A stretch of 29,042 bases of DNA. Source: a candidate division WOR-3 bacterium (lineage in GTDB: Bacteria; Hydrothermota; Hydrothermia; Hydrothermales; Hydrothermaceae). Every line of letters begins with the position of its first letter. Position 1 is the first letter of the stretch. The stretch is from contig JBDRZF010000001.1 in NCBI GenBank assembly GCA_039803805.1, positions 1 through 29,042 of the forward strand, given 5' to 3'. The position numbers and the translations under genes are program-made. Shown here piece by piece: positions 15,614-20,828 of the stretch. A model generated the notes under the pieces. That model saw nothing but the letters and a program-made list of their open reading frames with translations, did not search any database and was not told the origin of the DNA.

Positions 15614-15994
15614 TTAAAATTTTTTCTTTAAAAAAAATTTAAAACTTTCTTTATCTATTAAAAAGGATAAATTTAAAGTTGTATCCTTTGGGAAATTATA
15701 AAAATGGGCTGAAACATAGGCATCGGCAATTGAATATATATGAACCATAAGATAAATTATTCCATTATACAAAATTTTCCTTTCATATGTTGTGTCAGGA
15801 ATCCTTTCTTCTTTTCTTAAATCATAAATTCTTTTAAATTCATGAATAAGATAAATTTCAGTTGCTCCAATTAAAGCACCTTTAATATAATTCTTTGTAT
15901 AGAACTGACCCCCACCTGGAAATAAAAAGGAGAGCCATGCTGAAAGAACAGGGGATTTAGAATAAAGAAAAAGGATAAGGATTAATTTTGTCAT
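15614..15994 (-). CDS. Small membrane protein, TM2/DUF5683-like
   Basis: Motif KSPVLSAWLSFLFPGGGQFYTKNYIKG...SIADAY. Start moved to ATG 15994 because the track's TTG at 16033 coincides with a -35 hexamer. Confidence 0.7.
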   Translation of the reverse strand: MTKLILILFLYSKSPVLSAWLSFLFPGGGQFYTKNYIKGALIGATEIYLIHEFKRIYDLRKEERIPDTTYERKILYNGIIYLMVHIYSIADAYVSAHFYNFPKDTTLNLSFLIDKESFKFFLKKKF

Positions 15995-16003
15995 TAGAAT
16001 ATT

Positions 16004-16033
16004 ATTATAAACAAATCTATAAGATTTATACAA
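16004..16033 (-). promoter_or_regulatory. Putative sigma70 promoter for the DUF5683-M42-dapB-ACAD-lipA operon (TTGTAT-18-TATAAT)
   Basis: Hexamers at 16033-16028 and 16009-16004. The ATG is 9 nt downstream with no SD. Confidence 0.55.
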
Positions 16034-16046
16034 TCCAAAATTAATT

Positions 16047-16073
16047 AGAAACCGTTTTTTATTTCTAATTGTC
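16047..16073 (+). promoter_or_regulatory. Candidate ECF-sigma promoter for the TonB-dependent receptor (AGAAAC-N17-TGTC), overlapping a 9-bp inverted repeat
   Basis: Resembles the TGAAAC-N16/17-CGTA/CGTC consensus with a T-rich spacer. IR AATTAGAAA (16043-16051) / TTTCTAATT (16062-16070). Confidence 0.45.
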
Positions 16074-16082
16074 TAAAATAAT

Positions 16083-18476
16083 GTGAAGATGGGAGAGTAT
16101 TTAATTTTAAATTTAATTTTGTTTAACATTTTAATTTCGCAGGTTCCAAGAGAAAGATTTGAAGGAAAAATAAAAGGAACAATAATTGATAAGGAGACAA
16201 ATGAGCCTCTTGAATATGCAAGTATTTCTTTATTCAGGGAAAAGGATTCAACATTTATAATAGGGGTATTATCAGATAAAAATGGTGAATTTTTAATAAA
16301 TGTTGAAAGACCAGGGATTTATTTTTTAAGAATAACATTTCTTGGTTATGAGAAAAGGGAAATACATTCATTAAGAATAACTCCTGAAAACAGAATTTTA
16401 GATATTGGCAAAGTATATCTTGAGGTTTCTGGAATTTTATTAAAAACACAAGAAGTAATTGCTGAACCACTTCCAATAACTTATAAGGTTGATAAAAAAG
16501 TTATAGAAGTAAGTAAAATGGGATTTTTATCAGGGAATGCAGTTGATATATTAAAGAATGTTCCATCAGTGAGTGTTGATATTGAAGGGAATGTAAAATT
16601 GAGGGGAAGTGAAAATTTTTTACTCTATATAGATGGAAGACAGTCTCTTCTTGACCCAAACGATGCATTAAAACAAATCCCTGCATCATCAATTGAAAAA
16701 ATTGAAATAATAACAAATCCATCTGCAAGATATGAAGCAGAAGGAACTTCCGGAATAATAAATATAATTCTTAAAAAGGGGAAAATTGAAGGTTTAAATG
16801 GAATTATAAATTCAAGTATAGGAGTTAATGAAAAATACGGAGGAGATTTTATTTTGAATTATAAAAAAGGAAAAATAAACACATTTATAAGTTTGAATTA
16901 TAATAAAAGAAAATTTTCAGAAAAGATAAATTCAGAAAGGGAAATAAATGAGAAAAAAATAAATTCTGATGGTTCTTCATCAAGAATATTCAATCCATTC
17001 AATATAAGAACAGGTATTGATTTAAACATTAAAGAAAAAAATTTATTTGGTGTTGGATTAAATTATGGAATATGGAATATGCAAAATAGGAATTTCTCAG
17101 AATACAATGAAATTTTTGATACACAGATTATAAATTATAAAACAGAGGGATATTTTAAAAGAAAGGGTCCTTTCTTTGAAATTGTTTTAAATGACTTACA
17201 AAAATTTAAAAAAGAGGAAGATAAACTTTTTACAGAATTTGTATACTCCTATAGAGAGGGAAATGAAGAAAATAGAACTTATAAAATGGATAGTTTGGAT
17301 ATGATATTGAATGGAAACAAGAGAATTGAAGAAGGAACTTCAAATAGATTTTCAGGGAGAGCAGAATATACAAAATCTTTTAAAGAAAATTTTAAATTTG
17401 AAACAGGGTTTAGAGGGGAATATGGGATAAGTAAAGATATGAGCAATTTCTATAATTATAAAGATGGAAATTTTGAAATTGTTGATAGTTTTTGCCATAG
17501 TGTAAAATATCTCAATAATATTCAGGCAATTTATTCTTTATTATCAGGAGAGTTTAAGAATACAGGATATCAAATTGGTTTAAGGATTGAATATAATAAT
17601 AGAAAAATAGAGTATGCTGATACAAATTTAAAATATATCTTTGAAAAAATTGATTATTTTCCAACAATTCATTTTTCCCATAGATTTTTAAAATTAAGGG
17701 AAACATTTTTAAGTTATTCAAGAAGGATTTCAAGACCAAGAGATTTCTGGCTTGAACCACTTTTAACATGGATGGACCCTTATAATTTAAGAAAAGGGAA
17801 TCCTGATTTAAAACCAGAATATATTGATAATTTTGAAACAGGTATAACAACACCATTTTTGAAAGGTTCTTTAACATTTGAAACATACTATAGAATAACT
17901 TATAATAAATTTGAAAGAATAAGAATTCCCTATGGAGATTCTGCTTTCCTTCATACAGTTATTAATTCAGGAAAATTATTCTCTTATGGAGGAGAAATAT
18001 CCTTTAATAAAAATATTTTTAAGTTAATGAATATGAATCTTGTTCTTGATTTCTATGGTTATAAATTTAAAGGAAAGATTTATGATGAAAAAATTACAAA
18101 AGGGGATATAAATTATAATTTAAGGTTTAATTCAAATATTTTTATGCCCTTTTCTTCTCGCTTACAATTAATCTTTGTTTATCATAGTCCACCGGTTTCG
18201 GCACAGGGAAAAGAAAAGGAATTTATTACCTTTGATTTTTCAATTCAAAAATTCTTCTTAAACAAAAATTTATCCCTCAATTTAGAAGTAAGAAATCTTT
18301 TTAATACTTTAAAAAGGGGATTTGAAATAAAAGAAGAAAATTATAAGTATATTCAAACATTTAAGCAGGAATCAGGAGTATTAATACTTACAATGAGTTA
18401 TAACTTTAACAACTATAAACCTGAAAGAAAGATTAAAAAAGAGATAGAAGAAGAAAGAGAAGAATTTGAATATTAA
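16083..18476 (+). CDS. TonB-dependent outer-membrane receptor with N-terminal carboxypeptidase-regulatory-like domain
   Basis: GKIKGTIIDKETNEPLEYASI, plug motifs VDILKNVPSVSVD and IEKIEIITNPSARYEAEGTSGIINIILKK, barrel motifs SYSRRISRP and GNPDLKPE, and last strand LTMSYNF followed by a short acidic tail. Confidence 0.9.
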   Translation: MKMGEYLILNLILFNILISQVPRERFEGKIKGTIIDKETNEPLEYASISLFREKDSTFIIGVLSDKNGEFLINVERPGIYFLRITFLGYEKREIHSLRITPENRILDIGKVYLEVSGILLKTQEVIAEPLPITYKVDKKVIEVSKMGFLSGNAVDILKNVPSVSVDIEGNVKLRGSENFLLYIDGRQSLLDPNDALKQIPASSIEKIEIITNPSARYEAEGTSGIINIILKKGKIEGLNGIINSSIGVNEKYGGDFILNYKKGKINTFISLNYNKRKFSEKINSEREINEKKINSDGSSSRIFNPFNIRTGIDLNIKEKNLFGVGLNYGIWNMQNRNFSEYNEIFDTQIINYKTEGYFKRKGPFFEIVLNDLQKFKKEEDKLFTEFVYSYREGNEENRTYKMDSLDMILNGNKRIEEGTSNRFSGRAEYTKSFKENFKFETGFRGEYGISKDMSNFYNYKDGNFEIVDSFCHSVKYLNNIQAIYSLLSGEFKNTGYQIGLRIEYNNRKIEYADTNLKYIFEKIDYFPTIHFSHRFLKLRETFLSYSRRISRPRDFWLEPLLTWMDPYNLRKGNPDLKPEYIDNFETGITTPFLKGSLTFETYYRITYNKFERIRIPYGDSAFLHTVINSGKLFSYGGEISFNKNIFKLMNMNLVLDFYGYKFKGKIYDEKITKGDINYNLRFNSNIFMPFSSRLQLIFVYHSPPVSAQGKEKEFITFDFSIQKFFLNKNLSLNLEVRNLFNTLKRGFEIKEENYKYIQTFKQESGVLILTMSYNFNNYKPERKIKKEIEEEREEFEY

Positions 18477-18487
18477 ATTCTAAAATT

Positions 18488-20749
18488 CTAAAATTCTAAT
18501 AAAAATGGCAGCATATAAAGATAGTTTTCATTTAAAAGAAAAGGTGAATTTAAACTTGTTTTTTCAAAGGTTTTTAAAGGGCTCCACCATTTTATTTCAG
18601 GGTATTGAATTACTTTTACATCTCCTTTAATCTTTGCGATTCTTTTTGCTTCTTCAATTGCATCAAGGATACCACCTGTTTCATCAATCAATTTTATATT
18701 TTTTGCATCCTCACCTGAATATATCCTTCCCTGTCCAAGGGAATCAACTTTTTCAAAGGGAATATTTCTTGAAATACTTACCCTTTTAACAAACTCTTTG
18801 TATCCCCATTCAATCTCTTTTTTGAAAATTTCTCTTTCTTTTTCATCAAATTTCCTTGTAAAGGTGAAAGCATCTGCATGTTCCCTTGTTTTTACCCTGT
18901 CAAACTTTATTCCAAATTTTTCAAAGAATTCTTTAAGAACAAATTTTCCACCAAGTATGCCTATTGAACCTGTTAATGTTGTTTTATCTGCATAAATCTT
19001 ATTTGCAATACAGGATATATAATATCCACCTGAAGCAGCAACCTGACCCATTGAAACAACAACTGGTTTTTTCTCCTTTAACCTTCTTATTGCATCCCAT
19101 ATGATTTCAGAGGCAAGAGCAGAACCACCAGGGGAGTTAACCCTGCATACAACTGCCTTTATGCTCTTATCCTTCTCAATCTTTTCTATCAATTTGCTCA
19201 TAGTTTCAGAACCAAGATTTTTGCCACCAATTATAGGGATTGGATTTTTTGAACTCTCACCAACTATTATACTTCCTTCCATTGACAATATTGCAATTTT
19301 CGGTCTTTCATCTTTAAATTCCCTCATCAAATATTTCTTTTTCAAAATCCTATCAGAATCAAAAATTAAAGGTTTTTTACCATACCATCTTTTAATGAGT
19401 TCTGGAACATCCCTTTCAAATCCTTCTTCATCACAGAGTCCTTCTTTTACTGCATTTTCTGAATTGAAATACCCTTTATCCATAATTTCATTTATTTTTT
19501 CTTTTGATAAATTTCTACCTTCATTAATATTTTTAATTATCAAATTTTCAACATCTTTCAAAAATTCAATTCTCTGCTCTTTATCCTCAGGTGACATATC
19601 TTCCCTTAAAAGTGGCTCAACAGCAGATTTGTATTTACCAATTCTTTCAAACTCTGGTTCAATACCTATTTTTTCAAACATCTTTTTTAAATATATGTTT
19701 TCCATATAAAGACCGGGGATAAAAACTTCACCATTTGGAACTATAATTATTTTATCAGATATTGAAGCAATCATATAGTTTATGATTCCAAAACTTTCTC
19801 CAATTGACACAATCTTTTTACCCTTTGATTTTATCTCTTTTAATAAATTATAAATTTCTTCTGCCTGAGAAGGAGTTAAACTTGGATTTTTAAAAACAAT
19901 TATTATTCCTTCAACATATTTTTCTTTTTCTATTTTCTTTAATTCACTGAGTAAATCATAAAAGGATTTTTTTAATTTAAATTTTAAAAATCCTTCAAAT
20001 TCCCTTTCCTCAGGATAATCACCTTTAAGTTCTATCCTTACCCATTTTTTCCTTTCAGGGAAAATCGTTGGATATATTTCCCTTGATAAAATAAATCCAC
20101 CTGAATATCTTGTTTTTTCCTTTTCTTTAAATCTACCTGTAAAGAATGTTTTTATATTTCCAAAAGAAATTTCTATTCCACCAAAATATCTTTTAAGAGA
20201 ATTTCTTTCAATTCTTGCCCCTCCATAAACATATATTCCATCAAATATTTCATAAATAGCCTGATAAAGACTATAATTTGTTATTCTCCAGAAATTAAAA
20301 TCTGCTGAAAATGTTATTCTATCAGTAAATGGTCTTAAAGATGCGCTTAATGTTAAAGAAGTATCGTAATTTTGAATTAAACTAAAAGTTCCACCAAATC
20401 TTAAAATTTTAAATGGAGAAAAGATGAAGCCAAACTTATTTTCCTTTAAATCACCAAAGGAATAGGAATAACCAATTGAAAAATTTTCACCAAAGGGAAT
20501 ACCAATTGAAAAGGAATATATCTCTGTTTTAAGATAATCTGTAAAGGAAAAACCAAAATTATTAAAAGAAGAGGAAAGATAATATATGGGTTTATCTTTA
20601 GTTTCTCTTATATTGAAATAAAATTCATATCCGGGCTGAATTCCAAGACCTGCAGGATTTAAAATTGCTCCTGAGCTTCTTATAGATGTTGATACAGAAT
20701 TAGAAAATGGTGAAAATAAAATATTTAGATATAAAATTAAACTATACAT
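18488..20749 (-). CDS. sppA: Signal peptide peptidase SppA (67K tandem type) with an extra N-terminal ~220-aa beta-barrel-like domain
   Basis: Catalytic Lys motif GKYKSAVE, RVNSPGGS, catalytic Ser motif SMGQVAASGGYYIS, TGSIGI and GQGRIYSG. Start placed at ATG 20749 (AGGAGG 5 nt upstream) rather than GTG 20755. Confidence 0.9.
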   Translation of the reverse strand: MYSLILYLNILFSPFSNSVSTSIRSSGAILNPAGLGIQPGYEFYFNIRETKDKPIYYLSSSFNNFGFSFTDYLKTEIYSFSIGIPFGENFSIGYSYSFGDLKENKFGFIFSPFKILRFGGTFSLIQNYDTSLTLSASLRPFTDRITFSADFNFWRITNYSLYQAIYEIFDGIYVYGGARIERNSLKRYFGGIEISFGNIKTFFTGRFKEKEKTRYSGGFILSREIYPTIFPERKKWVRIELKGDYPEEREFEGFLKFKLKKSFYDLLSELKKIEKEKYVEGIIIVFKNPSLTPSQAEEIYNLLKEIKSKGKKIVSIGESFGIINYMIASISDKIIIVPNGEVFIPGLYMENIYLKKMFEKIGIEPEFERIGKYKSAVEPLLREDMSPEDKEQRIEFLKDVENLIIKNINEGRNLSKEKINEIMDKGYFNSENAVKEGLCDEEGFERDVPELIKRWYGKKPLIFDSDRILKKKYLMREFKDERPKIAILSMEGSIIVGESSKNPIPIIGGKNLGSETMSKLIEKIEKDKSIKAVVCRVNSPGGSALASEIIWDAIRRLKEKKPVVVSMGQVAASGGYYISCIANKIYADKTTLTGSIGILGGKFVLKEFFEKFGIKFDRVKTREHADAFTFTRKFDEKEREIFKKEIEWGYKEFVKRVSISRNIPFEKVDSLGQGRIYSGEDAKNIKLIDETGGILDAIEEAKRIAKIKGDVKVIQYPEIKWWSPLKTFEKTSLNSPFLLNENYLYMLPFLLEF

Positions 20750-20788
20750 AAACACCTCCTTTAATTTCCCTCCTTTATAATTATATAA

Positions 20789-20815
20789 TACGGCTTAAAA
20801 AAAGAAAAAGTTTCA
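20789..20815 (-). promoter_or_regulatory. Candidate ECF-sigma (sigmaW-like) promoter for sppA: TGAAAC-N17-CGTA
   Basis: Exact TGAAAC (20815-20810) and CGTA (20792-20789) with spacer TTTTTCTTTTTTTAAGC, in the 73-bp rtcB-sppA gap. Confidence 0.65.
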
Positions 20816-20828
20816 AACCTTTAAATTT

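Follow-up and report, generated by a model that had tools for sequence, protein, structure and literature searches.

ECF-type promoters before sppA and a TonB-dependent-receptor-like gene in a Caldifarciminota (WOR-3) genome probably belong to two related envelope regulons

The stretch of DNA analysed here (the window, 29,042 nucleotides) is contig C1 of a metagenome-assembled genome (MAG) from the phylum Caldifarciminota, formerly WOR-3, and it carries two convergent genes for predicted outer-membrane proteins, namely sppA, which encodes a signal peptide peptidase, and a gene whose product resembles the TonB-dependent receptors (TBDR). Our results support a promoter of the type read by extracytoplasmic function (ECF) sigma factors at a site upstream of each gene, and it is probable that these are two separate ECF-dependent promoters in two related but distinct envelope regulons, rather than the joint targets of one ECF sigma that the original prediction proposed. 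The motifs, their excess over chance, their presence before sigma operons, their conservation and the separability of three promoter classes are all observed directly. The MAG, called G000 below, comprises 1.37 Mb in 240 contigs with 30% GC and a completeness of 75.6%; the relatives compared with it are numbered G001-G004 and onwards, and its own family, to which Ca. Hydrothermus pacificus JdFR-72 also belongs, is denoted f1. DNA near-identical to the window is found in hot-spring metagenomes from several studies.

On the plus strand, the TBDR-like gene (16083..18476; Pfam domains CarboxypepD_reg, Plug and OMP_b-brl_3) is preceded by the -35 box AGAAAC (16047..16052), where the next base is a C and thus gives the AACC of the promoter class that we call ECF2 below, then by a 17-nt spacer with a T6 tract (16053..16069), and then by the -10 box TGTCTAAAA (16070..16078), which in the alignment of class members has the ECF2 pattern xGTCTAAA. 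From the usual distance between an ECF -10 box and the start, transcription is predicted to begin at 16080..16083. The open reading frame (ORF) opens at GTG 16083 and has an in-frame ATG at 16089, which is the likely start codon, and we infer a leader of 0-9 nt before the one or the other. On the minus strand, sppA (18488..20749) is preceded by the -35 box TGAAAC (20815-20810), a 17-nt T-rich spacer (20809-20793) opening with a T5 tract, which is the AAC+TTTTT feature of the ECF1 class, and the -10 box CGTATTATA (20792-20784), whose CGTAT is assigned to ECF1 by the class model. Downstream of this promoter come a Shine-Dalgarno sequence GGAGG and the ATG at 20749, and the end of rtcB lies 73 nt upstream of sppA. 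The motifs, coordinates and spacers originally described agree with the sequence, and the ECF architecture of -35 and -10 boxes is confirmed at both sites and exceeds chance.

The excess over chance was counted in the 74 kb of intergenic DNA of G000, as delimited by a crude gene prediction with 1372 ORFs that take up 96% of the genome. The pattern GAAAC-N17-CGT occurs 7 times genome-wide, 3 times of these in intergenic DNA against 0.21 expected, a number reached by none of 300 dinucleotide shuffles, and at spacer lengths other than 17 the intergenic count is 0-1. All three intergenic matches read TGAAAC, a T-rich spacer and CGT[AC], and they precede sppA, the gene of a secreted PDZ/coiled-coil protein (contig C137) and an ECF sigma operon (contig C60). 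Moreover, the composite motif G[AG]AAC-Nk-[CT]GT[AC]T stands properly upstream of a gene in five cases at k=17 and in 0-1 at each of 19 other lengths, the five being sppA, the TBDR-like gene, degP/htrA, where it reads TGGAAC-N17-TGTCTTAAA, the secreted PDZ gene and the ECF sigma operon; the expectation that further carriers would be envelope or protease genes is thus borne out by degP/htrA and the PDZ protein. The scan originally proposed, for GAAAC-N17-[CT]GT, holds for one half of the pattern: the CGT form is enriched, but the TGT form alone is not (2 intergenic occurrences observed, ~1.1 expected), so that the TBDR site rests on its ranks with weight matrices and class models and on the conservation of its boxes. 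A position weight matrix (PWM) trained solely on sites outside the window places the TBDR site 13th and the sppA site 22nd among 2.7 million positions; a full-length PWM that included the spacer over-fitted the related training sites, and core and class models were used instead. None of the motif strings was found in the text of the review PMC4105308.

A strong match to TGGAAC-N17-TGTCTTAAA was also seen on the plus strand of contig C19 (8101-8132; locus L159, 802-833), between convergent genes and without a gene downstream of it. Synteny with G001-G004 extends neither to the plus-strand gene beside it nor to the gap, and the match could be due to chance or could mark an antisense start or the start of a small RNA.

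The contrast with sigma70 promoters elsewhere in the genome, another part of the original prediction, holds as well. In G000, TTGACA-N16-18-TATAAT is matched at 11/12 positions or better in 63 intergenic regions where 2 are expected, which makes sigma70 promoters a separate and abundant class, whereas the best such matches in the regions of the window, 9/12 before sppA and 8/12 before the TBDR-like gene, are at the level of shuffled sequence.

An ECF sigma factor encoded elsewhere in the genome had been postulated, and one is indeed present: the ECF1 operon is complete on contig C60, it holds the only ECF sigma gene detected in the assembly, and the same motif lies directly before it (C60 6773-6804, minus strand), as expected of a sigma factor that transcribes its own operon. 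Three ECF genes each are found in G003 and G004, and the loci of family f2 show the same three syntenic operon types. The ECF1 operon has the order membrane zinc-type anti-sigma, beta-helix/transmembrane (TM) protein, sigma, with the self-promoter TG[AT]AAC, T5 tract, N17, CGT[AT]T; the ECF2 operon has the order Spy/CpxP-like protein, sigma, anti-sigma, with the self-promoter rGAAC-C, N16, [ATC]GTC[TA]AA; and the ECF3 operon has the order sigma, anti-sigma, PDZ protease, with the self-promoter TGrAAC, N16/17, CGTC[TA]T. In G000, the two genes that flank the ECF3 cassette (1.7 kb) in G003 and G004 lack it between them (C5 8025-8066, locus L161), and ECF3 was not found in G001 either.

In leave-one-out assignment the self-promoters were classed correctly in 16/16 cases, by models built from 5-6 related sites each. 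The same assignment puts sppA of G000 and G004 with ECF1, the TBDR gene of G000, G001, G004, G005 and G007 with ECF2, and degP and the PDZ gene mostly with ECF3. When the TBDR site is aligned with the ECF2 self-promoters of G003, G004 and G001, AACC and GTCTAAA are invariant, and when the sppA sites are aligned with the ECF1 self-promoters, AACTTTTT and CGTATT are. In a scan of both strands of the genome (2.7 Mb), the ECF1 model ranks its own promoter first and the sppA site second, and the ECF2 model, trained without sites of G000, ranks the TBDR site second and as the top intergenic match. The match ranked above it (C74 159-190, minus strand) was rejected as a promoter, as it lies within the last codons of a gene beside foreign-looking GC-rich DNA; at the start of this contig (C74 1-150) GC-rich DNA follows a gene of 30% GC, and there may be a chimeric join of the assembly here.

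In the orthologues of the TBDR-like gene, both boxes are kept at a spacing of 16-17 nt while the sequence of the spacer diverges, and these conserved boxes with diverged spacers are the main support for the putative TBDR promoter. They are kept in G001, G004, G005, G006, G007, G009 and G034; for example, the boxes read AGGAAC...TGTCTAAT in G001 and GGGAAC...CGTCTAAT in G004, the -10 box CGTCTAAT recurs at the same spacing in G005 and G007, and GAAC...CGTCT is the form in family f2 (G005, G007, G006 and G009). As for the other members, the self-promoter of ECF1 is kept in G003, in G002, in G004, which belongs to another genus and has a sigma of 69% identity, and in family f2, and only its -10 box is seen in G001, at a contig edge; the degP site is kept in families f1, f2 and f4, and that of the PDZ gene in G003 and G004.

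Accordingly in the circuit that we propose, the sppA promoter (TGAAAC, T5 tract, N17, CGTAT) would be read by the SigW-like ECF1 from C60 and the TBDR-like promoter (AGAAAC-C, N16, TGTCTAAAA) by ECF2. Envelope stress would inactivate the membrane anti-sigma and free each sigma, and the freed sigma would amplify its own operon and then switch on a handful of envelope genes. The pairing of sigma and site, the inducing signal and the starts of transcription are what we infer here from sequence.

With the ECF2 model the TBDR site reaches a score of 19.9, as against 4.2 with that of ECF1, and across two families the flank of the -35 box (AAC+TTTTT versus AACC) and the fourth base of the -10 box (A/T versus C) follow the paralogue; together with the faultless classing of the self-promoters, this speaks against the alternative that both sppA and the TBDR-like gene are induced under the same envelope stress by one ECF sigma, or by ECF1 and ECF2 interchangeably. 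We consider this alternative unlikely, although it has several points in its favor. The AAC of the -35 box, the GT of the -10 box and the 17-nt spacing are common to all three classes, the ECF3 model gives 17.3 to the sppA site and 18.2 to the ECF1 self-promoter, and degP and the PDZ gene have ECF3-like boxes, which would need another ECF in G000 if they are active. In addition, SigW, SigX, SigM and SigV of Bacillus subtilis overlap in recognition, and T-tracts widen this overlap (PMC5758882); both sites in the window have T-tracts. With three paralogues of distinguishable self-promoters, and with sppA in the class of ECF1 and the TBDR-like gene in that of ECF2, co-induction of the two genes by one sigma is doubtful, and overlapping recognition of the B. 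subtilis kind is possible.

A number of observations weigh against the assignment of the two sites to two distinct ECF regulons, and they concern both the separation of the classes and the sppA site itself. First, the class models have few and related training sites, and the sppA site scores 20.9 with the ECF1 model, a margin of 3.6 bits over the ECF3 model that comes mostly from one base. The TBDR sites of G006 and G009 fall into the ECF3 class, so that for this gene the line between ECF2 and ECF3 is blurred. In G000 the ECF2 operon breaks off where contig C49 ends, with only the tail of the anti-sigma gene present; and the absence of the ECF3 cassette from its syntenic place in G000, where the boxes of degP and the PDZ gene are ECF3-like, argues for cross-recognition. 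In G000 and G001, the two genomes in which ECF3 is missing there or was not found, the -10 box of degP opens with T instead of C, but two cases are too few to speak of co-variation. Moreover, the enrichment is limited to the strict pattern in proper upstream position: in intergenic DNA the relaxed patterns [AT]AAC-N16-18-CGT[AT]T and [AG]AAC-N16-17-xGTC[TA][TA] are no more frequent than with control spacers.

As for sppA itself, the gap between rtcB and sppA is only 13 nt in G002 and the promoter is absent there, while in G001 a sigma70-like TTGAAA-N17-TATAAT takes the place of the ECF-type site, and no credible ECF site before sppA was found in families other than f1. In hot-spring DNA (run X9), position 20762 is followed on one contig by 20829, with 4 other letters between, so that this contig skips the 66 nt (20763..20828, between rtcB and sppA) that hold the sppA promoter. 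This segment is present or absent among close strains, and the putative sppA promoter is labile, an indel polymorphism. Hence the conservation in relatives, by which the original prediction was to be judged, stands for the TBDR boxes across two families and fails for the sppA site beyond f1. Two candidate sites before sppA were discounted: that of G008 overlaps the beginning of a divergent coding sequence, and G005 conserves it as part of such a sequence; that of G013 is at a gene end in GC-rich DNA. The idea that the 66-nt segment arose as a duplicate of the ECF1 promoter is unconvincing, as the 32-nt cores, in T-rich sequence, are ~72% alike by eye.

The weakest alternative denies an ECF promoter to sppA at least, with transcription by the housekeeping sigma at the TATAAT at 20785-20780 or by read-through from rtcB, and with GAAAC...CGTA a product of chance in T-rich intergenic DNA; the hexamer is perfect, G001 has a good sigma70-type promoter, G002, with its 13 nt after rtcB, has none, a natural strain does without the segment and no conservation was seen outside f1, but the best -35 partner of the hexamer, TTTTCT, matches at 3/6, a total of 9/12 is found in about half of the shuffled intergenic regions, apart from its own promoter the ECF1 model finds no better match in the whole scan than the sppA site, this site has the T5 tract and CGTATT in common with the ECF1 self-promoters, and G004, of another genus, carries GGTAAC-N17-CGTAT in a 44-nt gap before sppA (~4e-4 by chance, on our own estimate), and we hold this alternative to be very improbable.

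The sigma factor to which we assign the sppA site, ECF1, has 175 aa with the Pfam domains Sigma70_r2 and Sigma70_r4_2 and no match to region 3, as in ECF (group 4) sigma factors, and it scores 102.9 bits with TIGR02937 (cut-off 42.9), which ECF2 and ECF3 of G003 pass too. Its nearest solved relative is SigW of B. subtilis (E 1.2e-20). However, none of ECF1, ECF2 and ECF3 reaches an equivalog cut-off of NCBIfam: ECF1 stays far below those of SigW (NF007223, 96.4 versus 209 bits; TIGR02948, 84.8 versus 243 bits), so it is not a SigW orthologue, and with the RpoE equivalog TIGR02939 (cut-off 236 bits) ECF2 has 90.2 and ECF3 69.4 bits, this family being absent from the 25 best shown for ECF1. The first gene of the ECF1 operon encodes 161 aa with TM segments and invariant C3, H26, C30 and C33 (HxxxCxxC), and has no Pfam match. 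A model of its complex with ECF1 scores 0.61 against 0.01 for the best of 3 controls, a mark that 58 of 80 solved complexes attain and 2 of 110 mismatched pairs; its runs share at least 63% of contacts, the partner has a predicted local confidence (pLDDT) of at least 77, and the protein touches regions 2 and 4 of the sigma. The model supports the binding of ECF1 by this protein as its anti-sigma, and since sigma/anti-sigma pairs are well represented among solved structures, the score indicates likeness rather than proof. The middle gene (C60 5346-6284, minus strand, locus L049) encodes 312 aa with G-D-V/I-x-V-I-x-G-like repeats followed by several TM segments, has no Pfam match and is conserved in families f1 and f2. 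The Spy/CpxP match in the ECF2 operon is weak, at 25 bits.

On the side of the targets, SppA passes the SppA_67K equivalog TIGR00705 (348.3 bits, cut-off 311.45) and has Peptidase_S49 in 2 stretches (Pfam). Its first 260 residues or so (19970-20749, minus strand) are conserved across the class, with an NPAGL motif after the signal peptide. They were modelled as a 14-strand beta-barrel (pLDDT 80.8; predicted template modelling score, pTM, 0.75), and the Foldseek matches listed for it are beta-barrels, nearly all from bacterial outer membranes (FadL/TbuX/TodX, porins, OmpG, PorV), from which SppA may be anchored in the outer membrane. The naming of both as outer-membrane genes is thus backed by barrel domains in the TBDR-like protein and by a modelled barrel in SppA, at the level of prediction. 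G007, related at the level of the order, has on contig C35 (9011-9460) a fragment with 95% identity to the C-terminus of the SppA of the window, beside its own copy, which is 54% identical; the fragment is probably a contamination of that MAG.

In comparison with known systems, the ECF1 circuit resembles the SigW regulon in its TGAAAC and CGTA boxes, the T-tract by the -35 box, self-promotion, a membrane anti-sigma and a signal peptide peptidase as target. It differs in its spacer of 17 nt, that of SigW being usually given as 16 nt, in an operon with the anti-sigma gene first and the sigma last, in the missing orthology and in its host, a diderm of the Caldifarciminota where SppA has a predicted outer-membrane barrel. 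The analogies to Bacillus drawn in the original prediction agree with the literature: in B. subtilis the sigmaW regulon includes sppA-yteJ (PMC3498285), CGTA is SigW-selective and CGTC is read by several ECFs, and the T-tract next to the -35 box is a specificity element which broadens recognition (PMC5758882). As with SigX, SigM and SigV, the paralogous ECFs share AAC in the -35 and CGT in the -10 box and are separated by the last -10 base (here A/T in ECF1 and C in ECF2 and ECF3) and by T-tracts in the spacer; in contrast to them, specificity is deduced here from self-promoters alone, and the ECF2 class allows any of A, T and C as the first base of the -10 box.

With the RpoE response of E. 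coli, the system has in common degP/htrA as a conserved target and a PDZ protease encoded beside an ECF and its anti-sigma (the ECF3 operon), and the weak CpxP/Spy-like match at the head of the ECF2 operon also recalls the envelope stress response of E. coli. The consensus of E. coli sigmaE is GGAACTT-N16-TCAAA, so the -10 box is different; moreover, outer-membrane proteins are predicted to be directly induced here, and ECF2 and ECF3 are no RpoE equivalogs. An ECF-type promoter before a TBDR-like gene is a feature of FecI/FecR, but the STN signalling domain is not among the Pfam matches of the receptor, the anti-sigmas are short zinc-finger-type proteins with no FecR-like one among them, and the candidate sigma operon is of the envelope-stress type. 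The circuit is thus of the familiar ECF envelope-stress kind in an unfamiliar phylum, and not FecI-type receptor control.

Between the -10 box and the start codon, the ECF1 and ECF3 self-promoters have 12-19 nt and some TBDR orthologues 9-13 nt; promoters lie as near as 9-19 nt to the start codon at the ECF1 operon, the ECF3 operon and the TBDR gene of G000, G006 and G009, which suggests that their transcripts are leaderless or near-leaderless. In front of the DUF5683 gene, which is divergent from the TBDR-like gene, a conserved TATAAT stands only ~10 nt from the likely ATG (near 15994; block 15994-16033, minus strand), the upstream block is kept in G001 and G004, and its transcript may be near-leaderless too. 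Contigs of a metatranscriptome (X15, 96-97% identity) hold pieces of both the TBDR-like gene and sppA and show neither starts nor strand.

The Caldifarciminota (WOR-3) have a single cultured strain (PMC12285271), and the analysis gives a first and testable sketch of alternative-sigma regulation in this phylum, covering three ECF operons with their self-promoters and a small conserved envelope regulon of degP/htrA, a PDZ protein, the TBDR-like gene and sppA. The promoter logic of B. subtilis appears to recur in a distant diderm, and the gain and loss of a promoter can be seen between natural strains. We suggest, tentatively, that a Bacillus-like code, in which the last -10 base (CGTA/T versus CGTC) and the T-tract by the -35 box separate ECFs, may operate in a deep-branching thermophilic diderm phylum, and that the membership of regulons may be turning over in nature, where sppA, in this lineage fused to a predicted outer-membrane barrel, would enter or leave that of ECF1 by way of the promoter-bearing 66-nt indel segregating in hot-spring strains. 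For a specialist in ECF sigma factors none of this will be a surprise, and its value lies in the annotation of these genomes and in the design of experiments.

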